A program made the position numbers and the translations under genes. From contig CAVZHN010000015.1 of NCBI GenBank assembly GCA_963775095.1, positions 173,547 to 237,546 of the forward strand: 64,000 nt of DNA, in the 5' to 3' direction. This DNA comes from an uncultured Alphaproteobacteria bacterium. GTDB taxonomy: Bacteria; Pseudomonadota; Alphaproteobacteria; Rhizobiales; Aestuariivirgaceae. How positions within the stretch are numbered: the first letter of the stretch is position 1; each line of letters begins with the position of its first letter. The notes below the pieces were generated by a model, which saw only the letters and a list, made by a program, of their open reading frames with translations, searched no databases and was not told the DNA's origin. Shown in pieces: positions 4,555-60,101 of the stretch.

Positions 4555-8332
<3,778 letters not shown>

Positions 8333-8460
8333 GCACCAACTCTATAGCGAACAAAACCAGAATCAAGCCAGAGCAAAGAGGCGCTTCGAGGCCCTGCTGC
8401 GCAGGGCACCTCGGCGTGAGGGGCATCCCCTGAGGCGCGAGCGGCGCGAGCCTCGAAGAG

Positions 8461-9545: not shown

Positions 9546-11075
9546 TTAGTTGGCTTGGCGCCGCAAGAACGCGGGAATTTCCAGCTGGTCATCGTCATAT
9601 GACGGTTCCGGAGCCGGTTGCGGCGGTTGCATGCGCGGCTGGTGCGCCGGCGCCTGGCGCTGTGGTGCAGCCATCTGCGGCTCGCGCTGCGGCGCAGCCG
9701 CGGTTTCTTCCCGGCGGCCGAGGCCGACCGAAGCAAGGCGCTCGAAAAGCCCCTTCTTCTTGCGCGCCGCATGCTCGGCAATGTTTTCGATGCGGGTCTG
9801 CTGCTCGGCGATCTGGCGCTGGGCAATCGGCGGGAACTCTTCAATGGAAGGAATGCGAGGCGCCATGCGCTGTGCTGCCGGCCGCTGTTGCACCGGAGCG
9901 GTTGCAGCGTGCTCCTCATCGCTGATTTCCTCTTCAGCGGAAACGGTTTGCTGAACCACCGGCTGATGCTGCGCGTTGGCCCGCGCGGCCATCGGCGCGG
10001 GCTTCTTCACCGGAATTGTCTGTTTGCCGGTGAAGCCGAACACCGGGCGGTTGGGGACCTGCACTTCCTCGACAGCTTCGGCCTCGTCGGTCTTCGCGCC
10101 TTTGAGCGCTTCGATCGACAATCCCGTGGCGACGACCGATACGCGCATTGTGCCTTCCAGCGCATCATCGAAGGTCGCACCGAGAATGATATTGGCCTCC
10201 GGATCCACTTCCTCGCGGATGCGGGTTGCCGCTTCATCTACTTCATACAGGGTCAGGTCCGGACCACCGGTGATCGAAATCAGCAGTCCACGAGCGCCGC
10301 GCATCGACACGTCATCAAGAAGCGGATTGGAGATGGCAGCCTCTGCCGCCTCAATGGCCCGCTTTTCACCGGAAGCCTCGCCGGTGCCCATCATCGCCTT
10401 GCCCATCTCGCTCATGATGGCGCGGACGTCCGCAAAGTCGAGATTGATTAATCCTTCCTTGGTCATCAACTCGGTAATCGAAGCGACACCCGAATAGAGT
10501 ACCTGGTCGGCCATCGCGAAGGCCGCCGCGAATGTCGTCTTTTCATTGGCGACGCGAAACAGGTTCTGGTTGGGAATGACGATCAGGGTGTCCACGTGCT
10601 TGGCGAGCAGCTCAATGCCGCGCTCCGCCGTCTGCATGCGCCTGACACCTTCGAAGTGGAACGGTTTGGTGACCACGCCAACTGTCAGAATACCCTGTTC
10701 CTTGGCGGCCCGCGCGATAACCGGCGCTGCCCCCGTGCCCGTGCCGCCGCCCATGCCGGCAGTGATGAAGGCCATATGGGCGCCTGCCAGATGGTCAAGA
10801 ATTTCCGGAAGCGCTTCTTCTGCAGCCGCAGCGCCAATCTGCGGCTGCGAACCCGCACCCAGTCCTTGCGTCAGCGCCGTACCCATCTGCACCCGGCGTT
10901 GCGCCGCGTTCTGGATCAGTGCCTGCGCGTCGGTGTTGGCGACGACGAACTCGACCCCTTCCAGGCGGCTTTCGATCATGTTGTTGACGGCATTGCCGCC
11001 TGCCCCGCCCACCCCAAACACGGTGATTCGCGGCTTGAGATCGGAGAGGTCTGGAACTGAAAGTTTGATTGTCAT
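9546..11075 (-). CDS. ftsZ: Cell division protein FtsZ (long-linker alphaproteobacterial type)
   Basis: [29 protein letters not shown]-terminal [12 protein letters not shown]. Confidence 0.99.
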
Positions 11076-27573: not shown

Positions 27574-27615
27574 AATTGGTTTCAAATCCGAGTCATTTCA
27601 ATGCGGAAATGAAGG

Positions 27616-28006
27616 TGCCAGCCGGCCTGTAAGCCGGGTTCTGTTTGGACGGTTTCCCGCCCGCGATGACCATTCATCTGGAACGCCCGTTACCGGACGC
27701 TTCGCGCGACCTACCCGGGCAGCAAGCCGGCTAAAGCCCCGGGCCGAAGCCCATGCCACCCCTATTCGGTCTTGCTCCCGGTGGGGTTTGCCGTGCCGCT
27801 TCCGTTGCCGGCCGCGCGGTGCGCTCTTACCGCACCGTTTCACCCTTGCCGTCGGGATTGCTCCGTCAGGCGGTCTGTTCTCTGTGGCACTTTCCCTGGG
27901 GTCGCCCCCGCCGGACGTTATCCGGCACCGTATAACCGTGGAGCCCGGACTTTCCTCCCCCGCGCCCTTTCGGGACTTGCGGCAGCGGTCATCCGGCCGA
28001 CTGGCA
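27616..28006 (-). ncRNA. rnpB: RNase P RNA (class A)
   Basis: Minus strand has GAGGAAAGTCCGGGCTC near the 5' end and ACAGAACCCGGCTTA near the 3' end; terminal P1 pairing TGCCAGTCGGCCGG / CCGGCTGGCA. Confidence 0.97.
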
Positions 28007-47684: not shown

Positions 47685-48300
47685 GATTCGGATCCTGTCT
47701 TACCGTGCCTGCGGATTGCACAACCACGCGGGTGCCGATCTGCACCTGATCGTAGAGGTGCACGATGTCGTAGTTCAACATGCCGAAGCAGCCGTTGGTG
47801 GCCTTCTTGCCCACGAGCTTCGGGTCGTGCGTGCCATGGATGCGGAAAATCGTGTCGACGCCGTTCTGGTAGAGATAGATCGCCCGCGCCCCCATCGGGT
47901 TCTTGGGGCCGCCCGGCATGCCGTTCTTGTATTGCACCATGTCGGGGCGCGCCGCGATATGCTCGGGCGTCGGCGTCCAGATGGGCCACTTCGCCATCTT
48001 GCCGATCTCGGTCACCCCCGTCCACGTTTTGCTGTCATGGCCGACGGCGATGCCATAACGCGTCGCCATGCCATTGCCCTGCACGAGATAGAGAAACCGC
48101 TTCTTAGGGATCACAACGACGGTGCCAGCGGGTTCCGAAGTCTCGAACTTGTCCTCGCGGCGCCGGTATTTGTATTCAACCTTCTTGGCTTCCTTTTCCG
48201 AAACCGGAAACAGCTCAGAGTCCTGCGCGAATGCGGCAGGTGTTCCGGCCAGGGCGGCCAACCCGGTGAGCAGCGAACGGCGGGAAATGAGGACAGTCAT
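47644..48300 (-). CDS. L,D-transpeptidase (ErfK/SrfK, YkuD domain), Tat-exported
   Basis: SRRSLL signal; GGPKNPMGARA, RIHGT, ATNGCFGM. Confidence 0.93.
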   Translation of the reverse strand: MTVLISRRSLLTGLAALAGTPAAFAQDSELFPVSEKEAKKVEYKYRRREDKFETSEPAGTVVVIPKKRFLYLVQGNGMATRYGIAVGHDSKTWTGVTEIGKMAKWPIWTPTPEHIAARPDMVQYKNGMPGGPKNPMGARAIYLYQNGVDTIFRIHGTHDPKLVGKKATNGCFGMLNYDIVHLYDQVQIGTRVVVQSAGTVRQDPNHDTSVGQGRAAGP

Positions 48301-48389
48301 ATGAGTCTCCGGATGGGCAATGGCGGGATGATACCGGAGACGGGAGCGGCGCGCAAATCCGCTCGGCGACTGCCCCACTCCCCGATACT

Positions 48390-48484
48390 GTCATCCCGGC
48401 GCAAGCCGGGACCCACTGACAATTTTTCAATGGGGCAGCGCTTGCTGAACGGGCTCACTGGGTCCCGGCTTTCGCCGGGATGAC
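48390..48484. repeat. REP/RIME-like inverted doublet
   Basis: GTCATCCCGGCGCAAGCCGGGACCCA (48390-48415) and TGGGTCCCGGCTTTCGCCGGGATGAC (48459-48484). Confidence 0.9.
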
Positions 48485-48528
48485 GGTTGTTGGGAAGCGT
48501 TACTCAGCGTCTTTCGCGTACTTTCGCC

Positions 48529-48690
48529 TCATTCTCCTGCGACATTTCCACAAACGACTTCTCCTGTCAGCAACTTGCGCAATTCCGGCAAATCACGCGG
48601 CGGCGCTTCCAGGGCGAGTTGAAACCGCTCCCACTGTTCGGCGTTCAGGTAGATCACCCGTTTTTCTTCAAATTCCGTTGCGTCATCCAT
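48529..48690 (-). CDS. DUF1778 (TacA-like) antitoxin C-terminal-only protein or fragment, 53 aa
   Basis: Manual translation MDDATEFEEKRVIYLNAEQWERFQLALEAPPRDLPELRKLL...; below the ORF-track cutoff. Confidence 0.6.
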   Translation of the reverse strand: MDDATEFEEKRVIYLNAEQWERFQLALEAPPRDLPELRKLLTGEVVCGNVAGE

Positions 48691-48701
48691 GGCCAAACGT
48701 T

Positions 48702-49063
48702 ATGACACAGGAACAAGAACGCGTCGAGACGGCCTCAATGCAAGCTTCTCCAACATACCACCGTTGGCTCCGCCAACATCTTCGCCGACATCGGCCTTCC
48801 CAATGCCGAGGAGCATCTGATCAAGGCGCAGCTGGTGGTGAAGATCGACACTCTGATGAAAGCCCGCAAACTCAAGCAGTGCTGACGCCGCCAAGCTGTT
48901 TGGCGTCAAGCAACCCGACATCTCTAAGATGCTGCACGGCGATTTCCGCCAATTCTCCGTCGAACGCCTGATGCGGTTTCTGGTGGCGCTTGGGCAGGAT
49001 GTGGAGATTGTGGTGAAGCCACAGAAGGTGAAGGGAGAGGCGGCGGCGCTAAGGGTAGCGTGA
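48702..49063 (+). CDS. XRE/HigA-like HTH antitoxin; indels at about 48755 and 48880
   Basis: GSANIFADIGLPNAEEHLIKAQL...AAKLFGVKQPDISKML.G.FRQFSVERLMRFLVALGQDVEIVV. Confidence 0.85.
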
Positions 49064-49178
49064 TGAATTATGAGACACACAAGGCAACATTGCCGATGAA
49101 GAGTTCCCCAGCATGCCCCATGCGGTTCAGGTGCGGCAAGCGGAATTTATTCGCGCTAAATTACCGAAGGGTTAACTC

Positions 49179-49930
49179 ATGACTAAAGGCAGTATCCACG
49201 AAAAACTTCCCAGACGTCGTAAAGGATCTTGCCCAAGCACTATCAGAACAGCAACGAAGTGGCAAACCGTATGTGGTTTCTCTGTTTTGGCATCACTATC
49301 CTTGTGATCGCAAATCTCAATCCAGCTAGAAATAGCAACTCGATTGACTTTCTGGGTGTAACACTGACACAAGAGATTCATCTGGCAGCAGCAATAGCAC
49401 TGTTGCTCGAACTTCGCCATTCTATGGCTAGCGAAGGCTCGAATCACAACGTTTAAATTGGGACGACATATCGCGAACTTGTTGATCCGCAAGGTACTCA
49501 ACGAGTCTGAACACATACTAGCCAATTCTACTTCAATGAAAGCTGCTGCGTTCTATCTGCTAAAGTCAAACTACAGCCGAATTCACCCAATATTCCACCA
49601 CATCGATCCGGACGGAAGTCAAAGCCGCTACACGCTAATTAGAGGCTCATAGACATTGCATACTCTGCTGTTCCATCGGGTAGCGAATAATACTCTCAGT
49701 GCATAATGGTTAACTGGCTTATCTAAACAGCGCCAATGGCGGTCCAGTGAATGGGTGACTGTGGTGTTACTAGGCAATTACAGGACTGTTTTCCGCTTTT
49801 CAACGTGCGTCCTCTGTTACTACGCATTAGTACGGACTCGATCTTCCGGAAACTTGAAGGCCTATCACACGAGTTTGACAATGACTTCCTGTTACTTGCG
49901 AATTGCTGGCACTTGGGCATTTCGCTTCCC
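49179..49930 (+). pseudogene. AT-richer foreign segment with a broken putative membrane-protein gene
   Basis: Visible drop in GC; short hydrophobic ORF pieces (49229-49456, 49458-49652) that appear to continue across frames. Confidence 0.4.
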
Positions 49931-51588
49931 TCACCGCGCAAACTGCTTGTACTTGATCCGCTTCGGCATCACGCTGTCTTCGCCCAGCCTGCGCTTCTTG
50001 TCTTCCTCGTAGTCCTGGAAATTCCCTTCAAACCATTCGACGTGGCTGTCGCCTTCGAAGGCCAGAATGTGCGTCGCCAATCGGTCCAGGAACATGCGGT
50101 CGTGGCTGATGATGACGGCGCAGCCGGCGAAATCTTCGAACGCCTCTTCGAGCGCCGCCAGGGTTTCGGTGTCGAGGTCGTTGGTCGGTTCGTCTAACAG
50201 CAAGACATTGGCACCGCTCTTCAGCATCTTGGCCAAGTGCACGCGATTGCGCTGGCCGCCCGACAGCGTGCCGACCTTCTGCTGCTGGTCGCCGCCCTTG
50301 AAATTGAAGGCGCCGGTATAGGCGCGGGAGTTCATCTCGCGCTTGCCGAGATAGAGCACGTCGTTGCCGCCGGAAATCTCCTGCCACACCGTCTTGTCGG
50401 GATCGAGCGAGTCGCGGCTTTGGTCGACGTAGCCCATCTGCACGCTCTCGCCGAACGAGATGGTGCCCGCGTCGGGAAGCTCCACACCCGTCAGCATACG
50501 GAACAATGTGGTTTTGCCCGCGCCATTGGGCCCGATGATGCCGACGATACCGCCGGGCGGCAGCTTGAAACTGAGATCGTCGATCAGCAGCCGGTCGCCA
50601 TAGGCCTTGCTCAGGCCCTCGACGGTGATGACATTGTCGCCCAAGCGCTCGCCCGGCGGAATGATGATCTGCGCCGTCGTTGACTTGAGGCGCTCGTCAT
50701 TGGCCTTGATCAGTTCGTCATAGGCCTTGAAGCGCGCCTTGGACTTGGCCTGCCGCGCCTTGGGCGATGAAGCGATCCACTCGCTCTCGCGCTCGATGAC
50801 TTTCTGCCGTGCTGCGTCCTCGCGCGATTCCTGGGAAAAACGCTTGGCCTTGGCCTTGAGATAGGCGGAATAATTGCCCTCGTAGGGAATGCCGCGGCCA
50901 CGGTCGAGTTCCAGAATCCAGCCCGTCACATTGTCGAGGAAGTAGCGGTCGTGGGTAACGATGAGAATCGAACCCGGATAATCGCGCAAGTGATGTTCAA
51001 GCCAGTTCACCGATTTCGGCGTCCGAGATGGTTGGTCGGCTCGTCGAGCAGCAGGAGATCGGGTTTGCGCAGCAGAAGCTGGGTGAGCGCTACCCGGCGC
51101 TTTTCGCCGCCCGACAGATTGTCGATTGACGCATCCCCCGGCGGGCAGCGCATGGCGTCCATCGCCTGCTCCACCTGGGCCTCGAGGTCCCACAGGTTCT
51201 GGGCGTCGATCACGTCCTGGAGCTTCGCCGCCTTGTCGGCGTTCTCCTCATTGTAGTCCATCATCAGCGCGTTGTAGTCGTCGAGGATCGCCTTCTTGGC
51301 GGCGACCCCTTCCATGACGTTGCCCATGACATCGAGTGCGGGATCAAGCTCCGGCTCCTGCTGCAGGTAGCCGCAGGTCGCACCTTCGGCGAGCCACGCC
51401 TCGCCGTTCCATTCCGTGTCGAGCCCCGCCATGATGCGCAGCAACGTCGACTTGCCCGAGCCGTTGGGGCCCAACACACCGATCTTGGCGTCCGGGTAGA
51501 ACGACAGGTGGATATTCTCAAGAACCTTTTTGCCACCGGCATAGGCCTTGGTGAGGCCTTGCATGTGATAGATGAACTGGCGCGCCAT
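49931..51588 (-). CDS. ettA: Energy-dependent translational throttle ABC-F protein; extra bases at about 51015 and 51024
   Basis: MARQFIYHM, two ABC domains (GPNGSGKS / LSGGEKRR; GPNGAGKT / LSGGQRNR), HLDAES restored by removing two bases, [16 protein letters not shown]. Confidence 0.96.
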
Positions 51589-51625
51589 TGCGGGAAATCC
51601 TGTGCGAAATGTTTCGGGCGGGCTT

Positions 51626-52462
51626 CTAGCCCGCCCGTTTCACAAGGGCAATGCCGTTACGAGTGCTCCCCGGCCGAGCCGGCCTGTGCTGTTCCTCGGC
51701 CATGATCTTCTTCTGGTATCGGCCCTGCACGATATCGACGATGAGCAGCGCTCCCACCACGAAGTAGAACGTGGTTTTGGCCATCGGTTCCACCGGGAAA
51801 CCGAAGAACGCGAGATGCGCGATGTGGCCGCCTTCGGCCAGCAGCATGACGCCCACCAGCAGCAGCACGAACAGGCCAAGCACCTCATACATCCGGTTCT
51901 TCTGCAGGAAGGCCGCCACGTGTTCGGCCAGCGCCACCATGAGAATGCCGGAGAGCACGATGGCCGTGGCCATGACGATGAAGTTGTTGGTGAGCGCCAC
52001 CGCCGACAACACCGTGTCGAACGAAAACACGATGTTCATCACCATGATCCAGAACAGGGCGCGGGCGACGGTGGAATGTTTCGGCCCCGACCCCTCCTCA
52101 TGCTCAAGATCGTGCACCGCCAGCATGTGGAAGATTTCCTTGAGTGCGGTGTGAATGAGAAATGCCCCGCCCGCCAGCACGATCAGGCTGTGGCCGCTGA
52201 CGCTGGCCTCAAACACCGGCAGGTGCACGCTGAACAGCGGCGACTGGAAGGCGCTGATCAATTGCAGCACCACGAACAGCAGCGCGATGCGCAGCAGGAT
52301 GGCGAAGATCATGCCGACGCGGCGCACATATTTCTGCTGCGCCGGGGCGACCTTCTTCGCCTCGATGGAAATATAGAGAAGATTGTCGAAACCCAGCACC
52401 GTTTCCAGCGCCGTGAGGACCATCAGGGTGAAGAGATTCTCGATTGTGAAGAGGTCGGTCAT
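51626..52462 (-). CDS. TerC-family integral membrane protein
   Basis: LETVLGFDNLLYI, FSFDTVLSAV, LLLVGVMLLAEG. Confidence 0.93.
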   Translation of the reverse strand: MTDLFTIENLFTLMVLTALETVLGFDNLLYISIEAKKVAPAQQKYVRRVGMIFAILLRIALLFVVLQLISAFQSPLFSVHLPVFEASVSGHSLIVLAGGAFLIHTALKEIFHMLAVHDLEHEEGSGPKHSTVARALFWIMVMNIVFSFDTVLSAVALTNNFIVMATAIVLSGILMVALAEHVAAFLQKNRMYEVLGLFVLLLVGVMLLAEGGHIAHLAFFGFPVEPMAKTTFYFVVGALLIVDIVQGRYQKKIMAEEQHRPARPGSTRNGIALVKRAG

Positions 52463-52956
52463 GATTCTGGCGGATTAGCGCCCTTTCGCTCCATAAACAA
52501 CCACAACGCGACAGCGCCGGTACAGACCGCGGCGACCGCCAGCGCCACGGCGATGCCTCCGGTCTCCGGGCTGACCGGCAACATGCCGGTGAGCCCGGCG
52601 AATAGCATCACGCAACTGGCGGTCACGAACACCGCCACCAGCGCCGCCAGCTTGATCCCGGTTCCGCTTGACCGGCTCATCGTCACCACGCTCCACAATG
52701 CCGCCGCCAGAAACGGCGGGCCGCCGACCACCGCCACGGTGGTCAGGGTCACATAGGCGCCATCCATGCTGCCGAGAAAGAACAGACTGCAGCCGCCAGT
52801 GAACAGGGCGGTAAGGATGGCCGCTGCTGCGCCCAATACGCGAAGTCCCGAATGCCGGGGCTTGCCCTCGCCTGCCCGCCGCCGTTCGTGGCGCTCGAGC
52901 AGCCACCACAGCACGGCGATGAGCAGCAGCGGGCCAAGGAAGACAATGCTATACAT
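52459..52956 (-). CDS. Membrane protein with internal LFTGGC motif (paralog 3)
   Basis: 165 aa, about five hydrophobic segments, Cys56 in ILTALFTGGC; overlaps both neighbours. Confidence 0.8.
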   Translation of the reverse strand: MYSIVFLGPLLLIAVLWWLLERHERRRAGEGKPRHSGLRVLGAAAAILTALFTGGCSLFFLGSMDGAYVTLTTVAVVGGPPFLAAALWSVVTMSRSSGTGIKLAALVAVFVTASCVMLFAGLTGMLPVSPETGGIAVALAVAAVCTGAVALWLFMERKGANPPES

Positions 52957-53201
52957 CAGGGCTTCGCCTCCGGTTCCGCCTTTGCCTTGCGTTTTTCGCG
53001 GTCAATCCGCCACCCCTTGCGCAGCATGAACCAGCCCGCCACCAGCGGCAGCACGCCGAAGGGCAGCCAGACGCCCAGCATCAATCCCGGCTCCTCCACC
53101 AGCACTTCCACGCCATTGTACACTGTTGCCAGAAACACCAGCGTGCAGCCGCCGCCGAACAGCATCAGCAGCGCCCCCAGGATCATGAGCAGCACGTGCA
53201 T
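52956..53201 (-). CDS. Small membrane protein with LFGGGC motif (paralog 2)
   Basis: 81 aa, hydrophobic leader ending in Cys19, further TM, basic tail. Confidence 0.8.
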   Translation of the reverse strand: MHVLLMILGALLMLFGGGCTLVFLATVYNGVEVLVEEPGLMLGVWLPFGVLPLVAGWFMLRKGWRIDREKRKAKAEPEAKP

Positions 53202-53564
53202 CTAGAGGTTTCGCCAGTAAACGAAGGTGAAGGCCCCCTTGAGGGCGAAAAGCAGGACCGGCAAGCCGATGAGCAGGAAATCCTCGGTGTTGTTGAGGCC
53301 GACCTGGGCGATCAGTGGCAGCGACATCGCCACGACCAGGGCATCGAGGATGACCAGGGTGAGGAAAGCGCCCTTCCGCACCTTCATCTTCCCCCACAGG
53401 GCGCCGATCACCACCACGTTGAGAAGCGCCAGCCCGCCGGGGATAACGGCGAGCGGCGCCGCGAAAATCGCACCCCCGATGCCGCTGCCCGCGAAAATCG
53501 TCAGCGCGCAGCCACCAGCGAACAGCACGATGATGGCGCACAGGATGGTGAGAAGGATTTTCAT
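53202..53564 (-). CDS. Small membrane protein with LFAGGC motif (paralog 1)
   Basis: 120 aa, MK plus hydrophobic leader ending in Cys19, further TM segments; ATGA overlap with the radical SAM stop. Confidence 0.8.
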   Translation of the reverse strand: MKILLTILCAIIVLFAGGCALTIFAGSGIGGAIFAAPLAVIPGGLALLNVVVIGALWGKMKVRKGAFLTLVILDALVVAMSLPLIAQVGLNNTEDFLLIGLPVLLFALKGAFTFVYWRNL

Positions 53565-54973
53565 GCCGCGCCCTTCGACCGCGCCATGCGCTTGCGTGCC
53601 GCTTCGTCGCGGTAGAACAGGTTGTAGGTTTCGAACGGAATGATCTGCCCCGCCGGTGTCACGAAATGGATGCAGGACCGCTTGACGCGGCTCAAACAGA
53701 AATTATGCGCGTCCATGAACTCGACGATGGCAATGCGGAAGATGTTTTCATAACCGAAACCCTCCGGCACCGGCACTTCCGGCAGGCAGCACAGGAGCGC
53801 GTTGAGCTTTTCCGGATTGTTGCATTCCGCCGTGGCCAGCGAGAAGAAATTGAGCACCTGCTTGTGCAGGTCCGGGAACTTCTCGAAGGTGATGGCGTTG
53901 GGCAGCGCCTCTACCAGCATGTCTTTCGGAAAGAACGAAGTGATCGGCGCGATCCTGTCGCCCTTCCGCAGCGCATAGCCGATGGCGATCGATTCCGGAT
54001 TGCACGGCAAGGGAATGATGTCGCCCTCGCCGAACGGGGTTTTCGCTGCGATGATCTTGCGGCGAATGTCGGAGAGCACGATGCGGTCGGTGCCCGGGTC
54101 GAAATTCTCGTTCCGCCCCGCATCCTGGATCGGCTGGAAGGTGATGCCGCGCACGCATTTCCATTGGAGCGCATAGTTGATGATGTCGCCCAACTCGTCG
54201 TCATTCACCCCGGCCTTCACCACGACAACCAGCGTTGTCGAAATCGATTCCCGTTCAAGGGCTTCCAGCGCTTCCCTGCGAATCCGCGTGAGGTCGGCGC
54301 CGCGCAAGGTCTTGTGAACCGAAGCCCTTAGCGAGTCGAATTGCAGGTAGACTTCAAAACCCGGAGTCAAAGTCTTGAGCTGACTCACGAATTCCGGGTC
54401 CTGGGCGATGCGGATGCCGTTGGTGTTGAGCATCAAATGCCGTATCGGCCGGGCCTTGGCGGCTTTCAGAATGTCGATGATCTGCGGATGAATGGTCGGC
54501 TCGCCACCGGAAATTTGCAAAAGGTCAGGCTCGCCCTCGCTGGCCACCAGCGCATCCATCATGCGCTCGATTTCGGCCAAGGGCCGGTGCGCCGTGTGGG
54601 CCGTCGAACTGCCGGCAAAACACACCGGGCACGTCAGGTTGCAGGCCTCGTTGATGTCGATGAGGGCGAGGCAGGAATGCTGTTCATGGTCCGGGCACAG
54701 CCCGCAATCATAGGGACAGCCCTCCTCGGTACGGGTCTGCGGCGCCAGAGGCCGGTCGCCGGGCTTCAGGTAGTCGTGGCACAACTTGTAGTAGTTGATG
54801 TCGGTCGAAACCAGGCTCTTCTCCACACCATGGGTGCGGCAGCGCTTCTGGTACCACACCTTGCCGTCGTCGAAGATGATCTTGGCCGGAACCAGCGCCA
54901 GGCACTGCGAGCACAGTGACGTCGTTTGCCCATAGAACACATAGGGCGCGATCTTACGGATGGGGGCGTTCAC
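53561..54973 (-). CDS. Radical SAM protein, Tes/GDGT-MAS (MJ0619)-like family
   Basis: CSQC...CRTH, CPYDCGLCPDH, CNLTCPVCFA (CxxxCxxC), SGGEPT, NTNG, YLQFD, C-terminal CC and RSCIH. Confidence 0.88.
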   Translation of the reverse strand: MNAPIRKIAPYVFYGQTTSLCSQCLALVPAKIIFDDGKVWYQKRCRTHGVEKSLVSTDINYYKLCHDYLKPGDRPLAPQTRTEEGCPYDCGLCPDHEQHSCLALIDINEACNLTCPVCFAGSSTAHTAHRPLAEIERMMDALVASEGEPDLLQISGGEPTIHPQIIDILKAAKARPIRHLMLNTNGIRIAQDPEFVSQLKTLTPGFEVYLQFDSLRASVHKTLRGADLTRIRREALEALERESISTTLVVVVKAGVNDDELGDIINYALQWKCVRGITFQPIQDAGRNENFDPGTDRIVLSDIRRKIIAAKTPFGEGDIIPLPCNPESIAIGYALRKGDRIAPITSFFPKDMLVEALPNAITFEKFPDLHKQVLNFFSLATAECNNPEKLNALLCCLPEVPVPEGFGYENIFRIAIVEFMDAHNFCLSRVKRSCIHFVTPAGQIIPFETYNLFYRDEAARKRMARSKGAA

Positions 54974-55667
54974 GGGGTCCTCCGATCATCGCAACCGAAT
55001 AAATCACGAGTCCCGCGCAAATGAAATGGAAGAGATTGAAGGGCCCGAGAACCGTGCCATAGGGCTTGAGGAATTCCCACAGGAAGCGCTGGGCGCCGTA
55101 GTAACCGGCCAGCAGATAGAAGCCGTTGCTCATGAAGAATCGCTGCCGGCGGCCAAGCATGATGAGAGAAAAAACCAGGAACGCCGCCATGGCGAAGCTT
55201 TCATAAAGCTGCACCGGATGGCGGGGAATGCCATCGCCGAAATCATAGCCCCACGGAAGCGCGGTGGCGATGCCGTGGGTCTGGTCGTCGAGCCCTGACA
55301 GGAAGCAACCCCAGCGGCCTACCATCACGCTTGTCGCAAACGCCGGCACGAAAATAAGCCCCGTCGACCCTTTGATGCCGGAATACCGCTTAAAGACTTC
55401 GATTGCCACAATCGCCCCGGCCAGCGCCCCCACGATACTGCGGCCCACACCCGGCGCACCCGTGAGCCACAGGTTGAGGCTCCCTGCCCCGAACCCGCCA
55501 GCCACCGCCCCAAGGATCAGCGCCAAGGCGTAGGCATAGCCTGCGCTTTCAATCCGTGCTGAAGCTTCCGCCAGCCGCCAGCGATAGGCGGCAAATGTCA
55601 TGGCCATCGCTGCCGCCGCCGAAAACAGATCAAAGAGTGTGTGGACGATCATGACAACAGGTATCAC
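54954..55667 (-). CDS. Divergent prolipoprotein diacylglyceryl transferase (Lgt) family protein
   Basis: GRWGCF, LPWG, RHPVQLYES, RFLWEF; GRSIVGAL replaces the canonical GMSFHGG. Confidence 0.88.
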   Translation of the reverse strand: MIPVVMIVHTLFDLFSAAAAMAMTFAAYRWRLAEASARIESAGYAYALALILGAVAGGFGAGSLNLWLTGAPGVGRSIVGALAGAIVAIEVFKRYSGIKGSTGLIFVPAFATSVMVGRWGCFLSGLDDQTHGIATALPWGYDFGDGIPRHPVQLYESFAMAAFLVFSLIMLGRRQRFFMSNGFYLLAGYYGAQRFLWEFLKPYGTVLGPFNLFHFICAGLVIYSVAMIGGPRERPHP

Positions 55668-55739
55668 GGCGAAGACAAATGGCGTTACCGGATTCCCGAG
55701 AAACGATAGCGCGATTGAGACAGATTAGTCGCCGGTTTT

Positions 55740-55755
55740 TTAATGGTATTTTATC
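55740..55755. promoter_or_regulatory. CtrA-like box in the divergent lgt-like / GGDEF-EAL promoter
   Basis: TTAA-TGGTATT-TTATC, one mismatch to TTAA-N7-TTAAC. Confidence 0.45.
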
Positions 55756-55792
55756 GTGCCCTCGTCAAAACTGCCCGAAAGAGGCGTCTTGA

Positions 55793-57943
55793 ATGCTTAG
55801 ACTCGACAGCTGGAAGTTCCTGCTTATCGTGGCGCTGCCGCTGGCGGTCGCGACTTTGGCGGTCAGCATCTTCACCTTTGACCTCATGTCGCGCGTGACG
55901 ACTGGCGCCAACCAGGCGGATCACGAAAAGACCCAGCAGATCGTGTTGTCGGCACTAAACGCCGCCCAGCAGCAGATTGCCAATATGGCCACCGATAACT
56001 CCTACTGGGACGACGCCGTCCGCCAGTTTTATGCAAAAGACCTCGACGAAGACTGGGTAGCCGAAAGCTATGGGGTGCCCACCGAAGATGGCGTGAACTA
56101 TCACCTGATGCTGCTGGTCGATAGGGCAATGCCTGAAGCAGTGACCGGATACCGCGCCGGCGAGCAATTTCGTCCCAATCTCAGTACTTATTTCAAATCC
56201 GGCCTGCTTGGCTTGATCGCACCATTGCCGTCCAACCTGGTTGATCACGCTTCCCGCGGGGCCCTGATGCAGACCGCCGACGGAATTGCCGTGGTTGCGG
56301 CCGCGCCGATCGTGCCCACCTCCGAAGACGTCAAGGTCGAAGCGAAGGAAGCCCGCTACCTCGTCTTTGCCCGTTTCCTGAACGAAGACGTGCTCCGGCA
56401 GATCGGCGACCAATATGTGCTCCAGGATCTGAAGCTGCTGCCCCTCGAGGAAGCCCCTTCCGGCGCCACTCTCCTGCAAGGTTTCGACGGCCAGCCGGTG
56501 GCCGCCGTCGCCTGGAAGGAGAGCCGGCCGGGCGACGCCGCATTTCGCTCGGTATCGCTGCTGGCGGTGGTGGCGCTCGGCATTCTCGCCGCTGTCATGT
56601 TCGGTATCGGACTTCTGTGCTGGCGGCTCTTCCGCGACATTGGCAGGAGGGAGCGCACGTCCCGCCACGCGGCACTCCACGACAACCTGACCGGCCTGCC
56701 CAATCGCGCCGGGCTGGTGCAGCATCTGCATGCGAAACTTGCAGAAGGAAACGAACTTGCCCTGGCATTCGCCGACCTCGACGGCTTCAAGGAGGTCAAC
56801 GATACCTACGATCACGAGACCGGCGACACTCTCATCCGCGCCGTGGCCGAAGGCATGCGCTATCTGGGAACCGGCGACGCCTTTGTTGCCCGGCTTGGCG
56901 GCGACGAATTCGTCGCTGTATTCACTGGCCAGGCCGCAGACACCCAGGTCGAGAAGTTCTCGTCAAACCTGATTTCATTGCTGCACACTCCATTCGACCT
57001 CGATGGCCGCCACGCTGCGGTCGGTGTCAGCATTGGAATCGCCCATGCAGGCACCGGGTTGACGGTTACCGAAGTCATGCGGCGGTCCGATGTCGCCATG
57101 TATGAGGCAAAGCGCCTCGGCAAGAACCGCGCGGTGGTCTACGAGCCAGCCATAGACAGCGCGCGGATTGCCAGTGCGGACATTGCCAGACACTTGAAGC
57201 AATTCATCGGCGACGGGACGATGGCCATCGCCTATCAGCCTATCGTATCCTCGGAGACCGGGCAAATCGTCGCCGTCGAAGCCCTGGCGCGCTGGCCAGC
57301 CGGTTTGCAGCCCACCGTGACACCCGACCGGTTTGTTGCCGTTGCCGAATCAAGCGGCCTCATTGATGAACTCGGCGAGGCCATCCTGCGCCGCGCCTGC
57401 ACCGATGCCGCGGGTTGGGGTGAGTTGCGGCTCAGTGTAAACGTTTCGCCGGTCCAGCTCCGCGACCCGGATTTCGTGACGCGGGTGCTCAAGGTCCTTG
57501 GCCAAACCGGCTTCAGCCCTGAGCGCCTCGAACTTGAAGTTACCGAAAGCGTGGTTCTTGACGACTTCGAGCGGACCCGCCGGCAATTTGCCGCCTTGCA
57601 CGCCGCCGGCATCGCCATTGCTCTCGACGACTTCGGAACCGGTTTCTCGAGCATCGGCTACTTGCGCAAACTGCAGTTCGACAGAATCAAGATCGACCGC
57701 TCCATCACCTCGAAAATACTGAGCAGCGTGACCGAACAGCAGATCGTCCAGGGTACGGTCCTGATGGCCTCGGCACTAACCGCCAGCGTCACCGCCGAAG
57801 GCGTGGAGCAGCGCGCCTCGATACAGATACTGCGGCTTGCCGGTTGCCGCGAGCTACAGGGCTTTTATTTCCACAAGCCGATGACGGCGCAAATGATCGG
57901 CATGTTGCTGAGCGCACCGCAGACGGCAGCGTTGGCAGGCTAG
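55793..57943 (+). CDS. Membrane-bound CHASE4-GGDEF-EAL c-di-GMP enzyme
   Basis: TM, DNSYWDDA periplasmic domain, TM, HDNLTGLPNR, DLDGFKEVND, RLGGDEF, VEALARW, DDFGTGFSS, EGVE, QGFYF. Confidence 0.95.
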   Translation: MLRLDSWKFLLIVALPLAVATLAVSIFTFDLMSRVTTGANQADHEKTQQIVLSALNAAQQQIANMATDNSYWDDAVRQFYAKDLDEDWVAESYGVPTEDGVNYHLMLLVDRAMPEAVTGYRAGEQFRPNLSTYFKSGLLGLIAPLPSNLVDHASRGALMQTADGIAVVAAAPIVPTSEDVKVEAKEARYLVFARFLNEDVLRQIGDQYVLQDLKLLPLEEAPSGATLLQGFDGQPVAAVAWKESRPGDAAFRSVSLLAVVALGILAAVMFGIGLLCWRLFRDIGRRERTSRHAALHDNLTGLPNRAGLVQHLHAKLAEGNELALAFADLDGFKEVNDTYDHETGDTLIRAVAEGMRYLGTGDAFVARLGGDEFVAVFTGQAADTQVEKFSSNLISLLHTPFDLDGRHAAVGVSIGIAHAGTGLTVTEVMRRSDVAMYEAKRLGKNRAVVYEPAIDSARIASADIARHLKQFIGDGTMAIAYQPIVSSETGQIVAVEALARWPAGLQPTVTPDRFVAVAESSGLIDELGEAILRRACTDAAGWGELRLSVNVSPVQLRDPDFVTRVLKVLGQTGFSPERLELEVTESVVLDDFERTRRQFAALHAAGIAIALDDFGTGFSSIGYLRKLQFDRIKIDRSITSKILSSVTEQQIVQGTVLMASALTASVTAEGVEQRASIQILRLAGCRELQGFYFHKPMTAQMIGMLLSAPQTAALAG

Positions 57944-57986
57944 CAGCATCTGGCCGGCGTCTCAGGGAGACAGCGGCGCACCGCAG

Positions 57987-60101
57987 CTATTCCTGATGGT
58001 CCAGGGCTTCCTTGATGATCTTGTGCAGATCTTCCCGGCGGTAGGGTTTCATGATGATGAACCCCTCGCGGAACCGCGGCTCTTCCTGGTGCACCATGGC
58101 GCCCTTGGGATAGCCGGAAGTGTGGACGATCTTCAGCCCCGGCCGCATCGAGCGCGCCGCCTGCGCCAGGTCGAAACCATTCATGCCGCCTGGCATGACA
58201 ACGTCCGAGAACATGAGATCGACATCGGGGTTTTCCTGCAGCCTGGCCAGCGCCTGCAGGCCGTCCTCCGCCTCGATCACTTCATAGCCGAAATCCGTGA
58301 GGAAGCCGCAGGCCACGGCCCGCACCGCTTCCTGGTCCTCGACCACCAAGAGCTTGGGCGCCGTCTTCACCGGCAAGGTGAGCGGCGGAGCTTCTTCGAT
58401 GACGGCGGGTTCTGGCGGTAGCGCCGCAACCTCTTCCACCGTCGGCTCAGCTACCGCCGGCATCTCCTCGCCGGCCGCAAACTGGCGCGGCAGATACATC
58501 TTGATGGCCGTGCCGTGGCCGACTTCCGAATAGACGCTGATATGGCCGCCCGACTGCTTGATGAAACCATAGACCATGGCAAGCCCGAGCCCCGAGCCCT
58601 TGCCCGTTTCCTTGGTGGTGAAGAACGGCTGAAAGACTTTCTCCAGCACTTCGGGAGGAATGCCGGTGCCAGTGTCCGAAACCGCCACCATGACATAATG
58701 GCCGGGTTCAACTTCGGGATGCCGCTCGGCATAGGCCTGGTCAAGATAAACAGGCTGCGTCTCGATGGTGAGATGCCCGCCTCTCGGCATGGCGTCACGG
58801 GCATTGATGCACAGATTGAGCACCGCCGACTCGAGCTGCGAAGCGTCGATGATGGCCTTGGGCTCGCCCGCCATGGCATCGACCTTGAGTTCGATGGTTT
58901 CGCCGATGGTGCGCGACAGAAGCGGCGATAGGCCCTTGACCAGATCGTTGATCCGAACCTCGCTGGGCTCCAGCGCCTGCTTGCGGGCGAACGCCAGCAT
59001 TTGCCGCGTCAGGTCGGAGCCCTTGCGCGCCGCATCGATCGCTTCGCCGAGGCGGCGCATGCCGCGCTCGTCGCCATCGATTTTTCCTTCCAGCAGCTGC
59101 AGATTGCCGATCACCACGGTCAGAAGATTGTTGAAATCATGCGCCAGGCCGCCGGTCAGTTGGCCGATGGCTTCCATCTTCTGGGCCTGTTGCAAATTGC
59201 GCTGCGACTGCAGTTTCTCGGTATTGTCAAGGACCTGAACGGTCAATTGCTCGATCTCGCCGTGCTCGTTGCGCACCAGCGCGACCGTTGTCGAACAGCT
59301 GATGGGCTTGCCGTCGGGCAACACAAACCGCAGGTCCTGATAGAAGTTCACCAGCGAGCCCTGAATGAGTTCGCCCACTCCCTTGAGGAAAGCCTGCCGG
59401 TCTTCCCGGTACAGGAGTTCGTCGAACGCCTGAAGGCCGGCTTCCGGCCTGCGCCTTAGCATGGTCCAGAACGCCTGGTTGGCCACCGCGATTTCGCCGG
59501 TGGGGGCGACCAGCGCCATGCCATGCGCCGCTTCCTCGAAGGCGCTCTTGAACCGCCGGTCATCGACCACCGTAACCGCCTGCTCGACCTTGATCGATAC
59601 CGGTTCGGTCAGCACGCAGACCGAGCGCTCGATGCGGCCCTTGTCGCCGCGATAGGCATTCATCGACAGGAGGATTTGCGCCGGCGCTCCATCCTTGCGC
59701 ATGATGGTGAAAACTTCGTCGCGGCATTGGCCGCTCTGCAGATAGGCCGGCATCACCTTCTGCACCAGCCGCGCCCGCAATTCCGGTGCCAGAAGTTCCG
59801 TGAACATGCGGCCTTCGACGTCCGAAAGCTGATACCCCAGCGCCCGCGACCACTGGCTGTTGACCGATGTGATGCGGCCCGACCCATCCATGGCATGCAT
59901 CAGCACCGGCATGTTGTGCAGCAATTGCTCGTAGACCTTGCCGTTCTGATCCGGGAAGAACGGAAGATAGGCCGCGTGCGTCACCGCCGGTCTTTCGATC
60001 TTCCACGTTGGGGCAGACTGGCGCAACTCATCCCAACCCTGGAATGGTTCGGCAAGATTGCTGGTCTTCATCGGCGATGTCATAAAATTGGCCTTTGGCA
60101 A
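57987..60101 (-). CDS. Cytoplasmic PAS-PAS hybrid histidine kinase with C-terminal receiver
   Basis: Two PAS/PAC domains, AHDFNNLL H-box, NLCINARDAM, DTGTG, GSGLGL, receiver VVEDQ...SDVVMPG; start may be 60083 or 60071. Confidence 0.94.
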   Translation of the reverse strand: MPKANFMTSPMKTSNLAEPFQGWDELRQSAPTWKIERPAVTHAAYLPFFPDQNGKVYEQLLHNMPVLMHAMDGSGRITSVNSQWSRALGYQLSDVEGRMFTELLAPELRARLVQKVMPAYLQSGQCRDEVFTIMRKDGAPAQILLSMNAYRGDKGRIERSVCVLTEPVSIKVEQAVTVVDDRRFKSAFEEAAHGMALVAPTGEIAVANQAFWTMLRRRPEAGLQAFDELLYREDRQAFLKGVGELIQGSLVNFYQDLRFVLPDGKPISCSTTVALVRNEHGEIEQLTVQVLDNTEKLQSQRNLQQAQKMEAIGQLTGGLAHDFNNLLTVVIGNLQLLEGKIDGDERGMRRLGEAIDAARKGSDLTRQMLAFARKQALEPSEVRINDLVKGLSPLLSRTIGETIELKVDAMAGEPKAIIDASQLESAVLNLCINARDAMPRGGHLTIETQPVYLDQAYAERHPEVEPGHYVMVAVSDTGTGIPPEVLEKVFQPFFTTKETGKGSGLGLAMVYGFIKQSGGHISVYSEVGHGTAIKMYLPRQFAAGEEMPAVAEPTVEEVAALPPEPAVIEEAPPLTLPVKTAPKLLVVEDQEAVRAVACGFLTDFGYEVIEAEDGLQALARLQENPDVDLMFSDVVMPGGMNGFDLAQAARSMRPGLKIVHTSGYPKGAMVHQEEPRFREGFIIMKPYRREDLHKIIKEALDHQE

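Follow-up and report, generated by a model that had tools for sequence, protein, structure and literature searches.

Genes and flanking features of the locus

Within the window (the whole stretch of DNA analysed, 64,000 nucleotides), the minus strand carries six translationally coupled open reading frames from position 55667 to 51626. Their coordinates and overlapping or abutting junctions, which read from the sequence as a 20-nt overlap, ATGA, TAG followed directly by ATG, TGATG and ATGA, are as the original prediction had described them, and the family assignments made there were likewise borne out. The first gene (54954-55667) encodes an Lgt-like, seven-TM membrane enzyme of 237 aa from a GTG start, or 232 aa from an alternative ATG at 55652, the latter being the public gene call P0286; it matches PF01790 (LGT) with an E-value of 2e-16, and public annotations name it “prolipoprotein diacylglyceryl transferase.” The second (53561-54973) encodes a radical SAM protein of the Tes/GDGT-MAS family (470 aa) with PF23545 (Zn_ribbon_HMPTM) and PF04055 (Radical_SAM) domains, for which TrsS and Tes are the best NCBIfam models. 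Three small hydrophobic paralogs follow, sharing the motif LF[AGT]GGC[AST]L. Small membrane protein 1 (53202-53564; 120 aa, about four TM segments) carries Cys19 (codon 53510-53508) in VLFAGGCAL, 16 uncharged residues after Lys2; protein 2 (52956-53201; 81 aa, two TM segments) carries Cys19 (codon 53147-53145) in MLFGGGCTL; and protein 3 (52459-52956; 165 aa, about five TM segments) carries Cys56 (codon 52791-52789) in ALFTGGCSL, with an Arg-rich loop 16 uncharged residues ahead of it. The last gene (51626-52462) encodes a TerC-family membrane protein of 278 aa (PF03741, E 3e-38).

The TerC stop codon is enclosed by a minus-strand hairpin at 51616-51636 (MFE -26.9 kcal/mol, z -6.3 against shuffles), which has no U-tract after it and is a candidate terminator marking the end of the transcription unit. 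At the other end, a divergent intergenic region of 125 nt (55668-55792) separates the Lgt-like gene from a plus-strand GGDEF-EAL gene (55793-57943) and presumably holds the promoter of the operon. Searches of this region gave neither a riboswitch nor any other Rfam family, and no convincing sigma-70 site on its minus strand.

Conservation of a three-component module

Genome loci, 81 in number, were collected by way of the radical SAM motifs only. In 61 of these the Lgt-like gene immediately precedes the radical SAM gene, usually overlapping its start, and in 15 it is elsewhere on the same strand (2 directly downstream and 13 in other positions); one locus lacks an Lgt-like gene and four are cut by contig ends. 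The pairing is thus present at 76 of 77 testable loci, in hosts from at least eight phyla that include Alpha-, Beta- and Gammaproteobacteria, Bacteroidota, Bacillota, Cyanobacteria, Acidobacteriota, Planctomycetota and Gemmatimonadota. Independent support for the link between the two enzymes comes from two natural fusions, P0139 (733 aa) and P0234 (671 aa), in which LGT, Zn_ribbon_HMPTM and Radical_SAM domains occupy a single polypeptide. RNA-seq assemblies from two cyanobacterium-like organisms join the radical SAM gene and the small ORF on one contig.

The small hydrophobic ORFs begin at or near the radical SAM stop codon and number one to four per locus, often as two to four tandem copies. 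Under strict criteria, 121 of 162 pooled loci carry 156 non-identical Cys sites, leaving about a quarter of loci with no detected small Cys ORF by the same criteria. At each site a single Cys follows a Lys or Arg at a constant distance of 15-22 uncharged residues, and in about 90% of cases position -2 holds a small residue. A lipobox-like Cys in a hydrophobic context is about 31 times commoner within 1 kb past the radical SAM gene than in flanks farther off. The filter for the Cys motif was drawn up after inspection of the data. Because the pairing recurs at 76 of 77 loci and the lipobox-like Cys is enriched to this degree, the arrangement lies far beyond chance, and the prediction that homologous loci would keep both the Lgt paralog and small Cys proteins survives this comparison. 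The residue at -1 is often Leu, Ile or Val, so the motif is not a canonical lipobox. The “GGC” motif noted earlier for these proteins is present in all three paralogs of the window, but is a local form of a broader Cys motif whose -2 position holds a small residue. The most frequent subtype has its Cys 3-16 residues from the C-terminal end; all three window paralogs are of the “hairpin” (LFxGGC) subtype. Radical SAM clade A accompanies hairpin-type and clade B C-terminal-type small proteins, and the parts of the module have therefore been inherited together. Homologs of small protein 1 (37-88% identity) occupy the same position in relatives, and homologs of small protein 3 occur at four loci (L002, L003, L004 and L007).

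TerC, in contrast, which the original prediction had counted as a member of the unit, adjoins the module at only 3 of 82 loci, namely in the window and at L001 and L002; it is missing beside the module at the other 79 and in every other phylum, and is not among the conserved neighbor clusters. It is a lineage-specific neighbor in the closest relatives and lies outside the conserved module. The conserved unit thus has three components: the Lgt-like gene, the radical SAM gene and the genes for small Cys membrane proteins. Among curated families and the papers within reach, none was found that describes a module of such composition, in agreement with the earlier statement that no characterized system of this kind was known.

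Relationship to known enzymes

The nearest characterized relative of the first protein is E. coli Lgt (5AZB/5AZC), with which it shares the Pfam family and the 7-TM fold. A profile of 18 members of the Lgt-like family matches 5AZB with an E-value of 1.4e-16, and this structure is the sole credible PDB match of an AF2 model of the Lgt-like protein (pLDDT 84.9), whose predicted fold is that of Lgt. Mutation of R143, Y235, R239, E243 or R246 is not tolerated in Lgt (Mao et al., 2016). Judged by alignment, the catalytic Arg/Tyr/Glu network is retained: the counterparts of R143, Y235, R239, E243 and E202 are invariant or nearly so, Lys stands at the position of R246, and the GRxG signature Arg, the RHPxQLYE motif and the Y-x3-R-x3-E-x2-[KR]-P network are held in common. 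However, the Lgt-like protein scores only 30 bits on TIGR00544, far under the equivalog cut-off of 118.9; the TM4-TM5 head domain is about half as long; and His103, part of the HGGL acceptor site in Lgt, is absent, with Asn146 replaced by an invariant Cys, so that its chemistry or acceptor may differ from that of Lgt. It is, moreover, always paired or fused with the radical SAM enzyme. The presumed acceptors resemble those of Lgt: a positive anchor is followed by a hydrophobic stretch, at whose end a Cys comes after small residues. However, they would be miniproteins, polytopic or C-tail in type, that are dedicated to the module and encoded with it, whereas the acceptors of Lgt are secreted proteins whose signal peptides can be cleaved; the small residue is at -2 and not at -1. 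Neither an LspA nor an Lnt gene was found among the conserved neighbors of the module.

The radical SAM enzyme is homologous to Tes/GDGT-MAS (M. jannaschii MJ0619, 7TOL/7TOM). Its match to 7TOL (E-value 5e-66) takes in the rubredoxin-like domain, the domain of the N-terminal cluster, the radical SAM core and the final ~50 residues. Its rubredoxin-like Zn-ribbon, N-terminal 4Fe-4S site and radical SAM core are followed by a divergent C-terminal domain, and C21/C24/C45/H48, C86/C90/C93, C111/C115/C118, C324 and C434 are invariant. The GDGT-MAS motifs CX2CX20CX2H, CX3CX2C plus His, and CX3CX2C are identical, and three of the four Tes metal sites are kept. However, the Tes score, 284 bits, falls short of the cut-off (450), the middle part of the C-terminal domain cannot be aligned, and C438, M439 and C470, which lie around the radical-capturing C-terminal cluster of Tes, align to Ile, Val and Glu, being replaced by family-specific invariant Cys324, Cys396 and Cys434. 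Since the ligands of this cluster, by which Tes captures the lipid radical, are not retained, tail-to-tail coupling of the plain Tes kind is less secure than the original prediction assumed. Tes also has neither an Lgt nor a peptide partner, and the hosts of the module are bacteria not known for making biphytanyl lipids. Mss, of Thermotoga and Thermoanaerobacter, is a radical SAM enzyme by which bacterial acyl tails are joined tail-to-tail, as the original prediction envisaged; however, it is only remotely related to Tes and comes from anaerobes, and no Lgt or small-protein partner has been reported for it.

The best-scoring curated model is TrsS (NF045646), reportedly a radical SAM (seleno)protein. 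The window protein scores 304 bits and, with orthologs from other phyla, 304-332 bits over the full length, under the cut-off of 490, as do ten other representatives of the wider family, the comparison being by score only. The neighbor of TrsS listed in a review table is a small selenoprotein, TsoA, with an “LULAXC” motif, and its resemblance to the Cys motif of the small proteins may be taken as no more than a lead.

A proposed model of lipid-to-protein joining and its alternatives

Taken as a whole, the sequence comparisons suggest a model, tentative and rated at a little short of an even chance, in which the Lgt-like and radical SAM enzymes act on dedicated small-protein substrates by lipidating the Cys and then tailoring the lipid by radical chemistry. 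The conserved Cys is predicted to lie near the outer-leaflet end of a TM segment, after a cytoplasmic Lys/Arg anchor, and this predicted placement is the geometry of an Lgt acceptor; the earlier proposal that this Cys is an Lgt acceptor agrees with its position, the modification itself being a prediction. The Lgt-family transferase would move a glycerolipid moiety, in the simplest donor reaction diacylglyceryl from phosphatidylglycerol, to the Cys of one to four small membrane proteins, forming with them a private enzyme-substrate pair orthogonal to the housekeeping Lgt. The cytoplasmic radical SAM enzyme, which may work in physical contact with the Lgt-like protein, as where the two are fused, could apply 5'-deoxyadenosyl radical chemistry to an unactivated alkyl-chain carbon of the protein-bound or donor lipid. 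The outcome may be a cross-link, either C-C or, via a cluster of the radical SAM enzyme, C-S, and the end state a small membrane protein covalently stapled to a tailored lipid. In the window, the module would be co-transcribed with TerC, itself outside the module. The linkage across at least eight phyla points to an undescribed form of lipid-to-protein joining, by which the long-unexplained bacterial “Tes homologs” gain a testable job. Counted against the model are the position of the Cys and Lgt active site at the outer leaflet while the radical SAM enzyme is necessarily cytoplasmic; the Leu/Ile/Val at -1, the changes at His103 and Asn146 and the loss of the Tes C-terminal ligands; the loci with no small Cys ORF or no adjacent Lgt-like gene; and the finding that bacterial Tes homologs do not track membrane-spanning lipid production (Sahonero-Canavesi 2022).

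It is also conceivable, though unlikely, that the two enzymes make a modified free lipid (a cross-linked, macrocyclic or thio-linked glycerolipid, for example), with the small proteins serving not as substrates but as regulators, or as membrane scaffolds or anchors keeping the cytoplasmic radical SAM enzyme at its Lgt-like partner. Lipids are the substrates of the Tes family, GDGT-MAS being known to bind lipid tails, activate their terminal carbon and carry bacterial phospholipids when purified from E. coli; the fusions make both enzymes one working unit, the His proposed to bind the lipobox peptide is missing, and some loci have no detectable small ORF. However, structural subunits are rarely present as two to four tandem, fast-diverging copies that are invariant only in one Cys at a fixed depth, the small ORF stays by the radical SAM gene even where no Lgt-like gene is adjacent, and the lack of correlation between bacterial Tes homologs and known membrane-spanning lipids bears on this scenario as well. 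Direct modification of the small proteins as RiPP-like precursors is similarly doubtful. In that case the radical SAM enzyme would form a thioether at the Cys sulfur, or C-C links between Leu/Val/Ile methyls (compare the isopropyl end of phytanyl), with the Lgt-like protein adding a lipid or acting as a membrane docking or processing partner, and C-terminal-type precursors possibly yielding a short lipopeptide. An enzyme gene followed by multiple short, hypervariable Cys ORFs is the typical order of clusters for sactipeptide, ranthipeptide and similar maturases, no partner is tied more closely to the radical SAM gene than the small ORF, the altered C-terminal cluster ligands could leave a site for a substrate thiolate, and the nearness of the Cys to the C-terminus in the commonest subtype would suit such a precursor. 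Against this, no SPASM/twitch domain, leader or RiPP recognition element was detected, peptide-maturase matches are weak and confined to the radical SAM core, the “precursors” are integral membrane proteins with a lipid transferase as partner, the predicted topology places the Cys close to the outer leaflet and away from the cytoplasmic enzyme, and the neighborhood has no conserved protease or exporter.

Compared with these, a six-gene operon with a functional TerC, for instance one joining metal- or tellurite-type homeostasis to thiol-bearing membrane proteins, is very unlikely: TerC is coupled to small protein 3 in the window (ATGA) and also follows the module at L001 and L002, but there an intergenic gap precedes it and ettA follows it, as ettA does in the window, which fits plain local synteny, and TerC is missing beside the module at 79 of 82 loci. 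It is extremely improbable that the locus is nothing special, that is, a housekeeping lgt beside unrelated genes, with the small ORFs as chance frames in GC-rich DNA. The public annotation of the first gene would suit this reading, and long spurious ORFs are common at 61% GC; however, the score on the Lgt equivalog and the missing His103 speak against a housekeeping Lgt, the pairing, the fusions and the small ORFs are found again in AT-rich Bacteroidota, Bacillota and Cyanobacteria, and public data have the small ORFs called as genes and show them to be conserved.

Gene order and linkage across bacteria

The run lies on the minus strand between 55667 and 51626, and the original prediction of its layout was borne out, as the ORF table returns six minus-strand ORFs of the lengths first given and reading of the minus strand returns the same overlapping or abutting junctions. 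The stop codon of the Lgt-like gene (54954-55667) falls 20 nt within the radical SAM gene (53561-54973), which has an ATGA in common with the gene for small protein 1 (53202-53564); the TAG of the latter is followed at once by the ATG of small protein 2 (52956-53201), a TGATG is common to small proteins 2 and 3 (52459-52956), and a further shared ATGA leads into terC (51626-52462). The Lgt, radical SAM and TerC families also held up against Pfam and NCBIfam, TerC matching PF03741 at 132 bits (E 3e-38), and the three small proteins align on LF[AGT]GGC[AST]L. By sequence, the radical SAM protein is nearest to homologs of Aestuariivirga and further Hyphomicrobiales (76-95% identity), which assigns the window to an alphaproteobacterium of this group. 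The TerC stop codon lies inside a strong hairpin (-26.9 kcal/mol, z -6.3), no convincing promoter site was seen on the minus strand ahead of the Lgt-like gene, and the search for riboswitch control of TerC or the operon gave no Rfam match in 49000-58000, even at E < 1. No canonical lgt was found within the 64-kb window.

For comparison across genomes, the radical SAM enzyme was aligned with representatives at 35-85% identity and two conserved peptides were used to scan one genome per GTDB species, a retrieval that is blind to the adjoining genes. At least 498 stretches encoding a relative were recovered; the best 80 of these, at 49-80% identity to the window enzyme, derive from Alpha-, Beta- and Gammaproteobacteria, Bacteroidota, Bacillota, Cyanobacteria, Acidobacteriota, Planctomycetota and Gemmatimonadota. 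Neighbors were counted by ORF calling and phmmer with the six window proteins. The Lgt-like gene stands directly upstream of the radical SAM gene on the same strand in 61 of 81 loci, usually overlapping it by 8-29 nt, directly downstream in 2 and elsewhere on the same strand in 13; its position is hidden by a contig end in 4, and in one locus, that of Fischerella (L062), it was not found. The predicted co-occurrence of the two genes is therefore confirmed, with the pair adjoining or on the same strand in 76 of 81 loci and the partner missing from one. The inclusion of TerC did not survive, as the gene lies beside the module in only 3 of 82 loci, namely the window and two close relatives. Homologs of the window small proteins are detectable by sequence in the five closest loci only, and de novo clustering of all neighbors gave no further broadly conserved gene. 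The Aestuariivirga litoralis locus carries two ORFs missing from the window (8319-8696 and 9552-10004), a 125-aa His-rich membrane ORF with a weak COX1 match before the Lgt-like gene and a 150-aa membrane ORF lacking the Cys motif between the Lgt-like and radical SAM genes.

The linkage extends to gene fusion. Two proteins from the representative search, P0139 (733 aa) and P0234 (671 aa), carry an N-terminal LGT domain, matched full-length by PF01790, followed by Zn-ribbon and radical SAM domains. Lgt reportedly has its C-terminus in the cytoplasm; if so, the radical SAM domain of the fusions would be cytoplasmic too and lie against the inner face of the transferase. A metagenome search with P0139 retrieved 80 loci, all with separate genes and none with a true fusion; this set is biased toward the presence of Lgt and was used for the small-ORF test alone.

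No RNA runs contained the window, the matching runs being DNA metagenomes in which it has a low share. At the Fischerella locus, four transcriptome assemblies from two related organisms each yield one contig over 7939-9755, which comprises the radical SAM gene and a small ORF at about 91% identity, and the homology ends at both borders of this two-gene cassette (7939 and 9755). Such contigs fit co-transcription of the two genes, a weak indication given that transcriptome contigs can contain DNA. In Fischerella PCC 9431 itself no Lgt-like gene lies within 8 kb, and the cassette of radical SAM gene and small protein seems to occupy differing contexts among related cyanobacteria.

The surroundings of the run offer several separate observations. 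Divergent from the operon is a gene for a GGDEF-EAL membrane protein (55793-57943, plus strand), followed on the opposite strand by a PAS-histidine kinase-receiver hybrid (57987-60101, minus strand); no link of either neighbor with the module is seen in other loci. Just downstream of TerC, ettA (ABC-F; 49931-51588, minus strand) is split into two overlapping frames of 193 and 420 aa near 51015-51030, where comparison with the intact EttA of A. litoralis points to one additional G and one additional A, each a single-base insertion, both falling in a stretch of about 12 nt. The break marks either a pseudogene or an assembly indel error, and in the latter case other frames of the window may hold errors too. 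The interval 49100-49930 contains only short, unconvincing ORFs, and GC content falls to 0.53 over 48001-50000, compared with 0.60-0.65 elsewhere. The sole Rfam family above its gathering score in the window is a bacterial RNase P RNA of class A (27614-28004, minus strand, 285.7 bits), and no tRNA genes were found in the 64 kb.

Small membrane proteins with a single cysteine

When every plus-strand ORF starting near the radical SAM stop codon was listed for each locus, a short hydrophobic ORF was seen to follow the radical SAM gene in almost every one, often through an ATGA overlap and often in 2-4 tandem copies. These miniproteins are too divergent across phyla to cluster, and all have one cysteine in much the same context: LFAGGC in the Aestuariivirga clade, LLLPG[LI]C[AS]L in Bradyrhizobium and other Alphaproteobacteria, ISLGICG with another 3-7 residues before the chain ends in Flavobacteriia, LIG[VF]S[VT]CS in Chitinophagia, LLNA[AS]C[FY]G in Bacillota and LLNG[AGS]C[FYW] in Cyanobacteria. 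Neither the window copies nor five copies from other phyla belong to a curated family in Pfam or NCBIfam. An initial ORF-based screen missed many of them in GC-rich genomes, because the first in-frame start there sits far upstream, and was replaced by a scan centered on the cysteine. Over the first kb past the radical SAM gene, a lipobox-like cysteine in a hydrophobic window has a density of 0.97 per kb, as against 0.032 per kb in the distant flanks (both strands), an enrichment of 31-fold. With the scan, 69 of 82 genome loci show such a site, as do, in a second set, 59 of 75 evaluable metagenome loci (12 of them with no Lgt-like gene detected on the available fragment) and, pooled under strict criteria, 121 of 162 loci with 156 non-identical sites. 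The exact fractions are soft, as the motif filters were picked after inspection of the data; this softness does not extend to the 31-fold enrichment or to the replication in the second set. The expectation that homologous loci would also encode small cysteine proteins thus stands.

The geometry of the site resembles that of a signal peptide with its lipobox. An uncharged stretch of 15-22 residues (modes 16 and 19-20) separates the cysteine from the last preceding charged residue, which is nearly always Lys or Arg within a net-positive segment; position -2 is a small residue ([GAS]) in about 90% of sites, and Ala, Val, Ile or Leu are frequent at -1. Architecturally there are two types, one with the cysteine 3-16 residues from the C-terminus (105 sites) and a hairpin type with the cysteine in a transmembrane segment and at least one more segment after it (49 sites). 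With one exception, the hairpin type accompanies the clade of radical SAM enzymes most similar to that of the window (at least 58% identity) and the C-terminal type the other clade (49-54%). By the positive-inside rule, the helix bearing the cysteine is predicted in all types to begin on the cytoplasmic side, with the cysteine toward its outer-leaflet end. A division of the Lgt-like proteins into sub-types by N-terminal length, to be set against small-protein type, was dropped on account of unreliable ORF starts.

Eight loci, in Acidobacteriota (L041, L076, L078), Planctomycetota (L059, L073) and Bacillota (L044, L056, L069), have no detectable Cys miniprotein within 1.3 kb downstream; both enzyme genes are present there, the Lgt-like gene sometimes kilobases away. 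In those lineages the gene for the miniprotein may be located at another site, or the module may do without it. A flavobacterial locus (L047) encodes tandem miniproteins at 2976-3182 and 3217-3426, one with Phe in place of Cys (SLGIFGALM) and the second retaining the cysteine; the Phe copy may be decaying or regulatory.

The Lgt-like and radical SAM enzymes

The Lgt-like protein matches PF01790 at 60.3 bits (cut-off 24.9, E 2e-16) over profile positions 75-238 of 240. Against the Lgt equivalog TIGR00544, however, it reaches 29.9 bits, below the cut-off of 118.9, and its orthologs from other phyla score 30-45 bits; annotations of this clade as "prolipoprotein diacylglyceryl transferase" are over-calls. 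Direct phmmer of the protein against the PDB gave no match, so that a family profile was needed, and the profile of 18 Lgt-like proteins finds E. coli Lgt (5AZB) at E 1.4e-16. In the alignment from that search, with conservation taken across the 18 sequences, R143, Y235 and R239 of E. coli Lgt correspond to invariant R118, Y190 and R194, E202 (of RHPxQLYE) and E243 to E156 and E198, each conserved in at least 90%, and R246 to K201, a Lys instead of Arg at the same level. N146 of the signature motif is replaced by an invariant cysteine, C121, and H103 of HGGL falls on a Gly in the motif G[KR][ST]IVGALLGG, the His not being conserved. In E. coli Lgt, R143, Y235, R239, E243, R246 and H103 are intolerant to mutation, and H103 with HGGL has been proposed as the site of peptide (lipobox) binding (Mao et al., 2016). 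The essential network R143/Y235/R239/E243/R246 is accordingly kept in the family, with Lys for R246, and His103 and Asn146 are both lost. On our reading of the alignment, the phospholipid-activating centre would be retained and the acceptor side rebuilt. The acceptor of Lgt itself is a lipobox Cys, to which it moves diacylglyceryl from phosphatidylglycerol; the co-encoded miniproteins present a lipobox-like Cys, though with [GAS] at -2 and often with a bulky -1 residue. The AF2 model (pLDDT 84.9, pTM 0.83) has 5AZB as its top Foldseek match in the PDB, with probability 1.00 and TM-scores of 0.50/0.43, all others being at or below 0.11 probability. As modeled, the protein has the seven-transmembrane Lgt fold, and its shorter arms and head account for the moderate TM-score; the head domain, situated between TM4 and TM5, has about half the length of that in E. 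coli Lgt. Wherever both motifs are found, the spacing from G[KR][ST]IVG to GRxGC is exactly 42 residues, the mark of a rigid core despite overall identities of 25-30% between phyla.

The radical SAM enzyme combines Zn_ribbon_HMPTM and Radical_SAM domains (Pfam) and matches GDGT-MAS (7TOL) at E 5e-66. Its best curated NCBIfam models are TrsS (304 bits, cut-off 490) and Tes (NF045702; 283.7 bits, cut-off 450), the latter covering only profile positions 1-293 of 486 in its best stretch. TrsS (NF045646) is a narrow selenoprotein equivalog, and its cut-off is reached neither by the window enzyme nor by any of ten family representatives. Invariant among 13 diverse sequences are C21/C24/C45/H48, C86/C90/C93 with H96/H99, and C111/C115/C118, which preserve the metal-site motifs of Tes/GDGT-MAS, namely the rubredoxin-like CX2CX20CX2H, the [4Fe-4S]N motif CX3CX2C with His, and the radical SAM CX3CX2C (Lloyd et al., 2022, also used to derive the 7TOL numbering offset). 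In Tes, a C-terminal domain holds a [4Fe-4S]C cluster with a labile Met439, and it is this cluster that takes up the first lipid radical. When aligned to 7TOL by phmmer, the sequences pair C438/M439 with I416/V417 of the window enzyme and C470 with E448, and C456 is kept as C434; the Tes-type C-terminal cluster site thus appears not to be kept, on a ligand assignment in Tes that is itself deduced. Cys324, Cys396 and Cys434 are conserved cysteines particular to the window enzyme's family. An AF2 model from a shallow alignment (pLDDT 60.7, C-terminal domain below 50) was too poor for the fold search or for cluster geometry, and these three cysteines were accordingly not placed.

Candidate chemistry and its alternatives

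The comparisons establish that the three genes are linked, that two of them occur fused, that catalytic residues have been retained and at what depth in the membrane the cysteine lies. Beyond this, a scheme for the chemistry may be set out, and we regard it as quite possible, if somewhat short of probable. The Lgt-like enzyme would transfer a glycerolipid onto the miniprotein cysteine, and the Tes-like enzyme, bound to the transferase, would then activate an unactivated alkyl carbon of the bound lipid or of a donor lipid, giving a cross-link. In essence this is the original prediction of lipidation and coupling, with TerC left out. Our reserve stems from the cytoplasmic siting of the radical SAM enzyme as against a lipid in the outer leaflet, from the role of Cys121 and from the replacement of the Tes C-terminal cluster. 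It is rather unlikely that the pathway acts on lipids alone with the miniproteins as scaffolds, as tandem, fast-diverging copies with a single invariant cysteine resemble substrates more than subunits. Direct, RiPP-like modification of the miniproteins appears similarly improbable: a classical peptide maturase is disfavored by the position of the cysteine at the outer leaflet and by the domain content of the enzyme, since no SPASM Pfam domain was found in a search for a SPASM/twitch domain after the radical SAM core, and NCBIfam maturase models match that core only, at 27-45 bits against cut-offs of 250-650.

A more specific form of the lipidation and cross-linking scheme is doubtful, if conceivable. 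A private Lgt paralog would S-lipidate the intramembrane cysteine, after which the Tes-like enzyme, docked on the cytoplasmic face of the paralog, would forge a C-C or C-S bond at an unactivated chain end, yielding protein-anchored macrocyclic or membrane-spanning lipids that covalently staple protein to lipid across the bilayer. Were this the case, it would amount to a widespread post-translational system that has so far escaped notice, and would be the real function of most bacterial "Tes homologs", so far seen as candidates for brGDGT synthesis. Should the broader scheme of lipidation followed by cross-linking be true, protein lipidation would gain a new class, Tes-type C(sp3) activation would be seen for the first time on a substrate bound to protein, and the Lgt family, an antibiotic target, would have a second branch dedicated to its own substrates.

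The Tes discovery papers considered the role of the bacterial homologs unknown (Zeng, 2022; Lloyd et al., 2022), and the homologs do not track the producers of membrane-spanning lipids (Sahonero-Canavesi, 2022), so that three independent papers have left open the function of hundreds of bacterial Tes/GDGT-MAS homologs. Their proposal as brGDGT synthases matters for palaeoclimate proxies, and metagenomic homologs should not be taken as markers of tetraether production. The tie of the present clade to an Lgt paralog, even within one polypeptide, and to single-Cys miniproteins opens the question of function to cheap experiment. The original prediction that no characterized system has this composition agrees with full-text literature searches for Lgt with radical SAM or Tes, which found no paper on the pairing, and with Pfam (2025) and NCBIfam release 20, in which the module proteins pass no model beyond generic domains and the miniproteins none at all. 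The enzymes belong to known superfamilies; the system of Lgt paralog, Tes-like radical SAM enzyme and Cys miniproteins, whose function we infer, is without a described counterpart and is present in at least hundreds of species. In the wider Tes/HMPTM radical SAM family, P0278 (861 aa) and P0271 (688 aa) are fused to a MobA-like NTP transferase with HD domains, or to DUF5714, and several unrelated pathways appear to have taken up this family.
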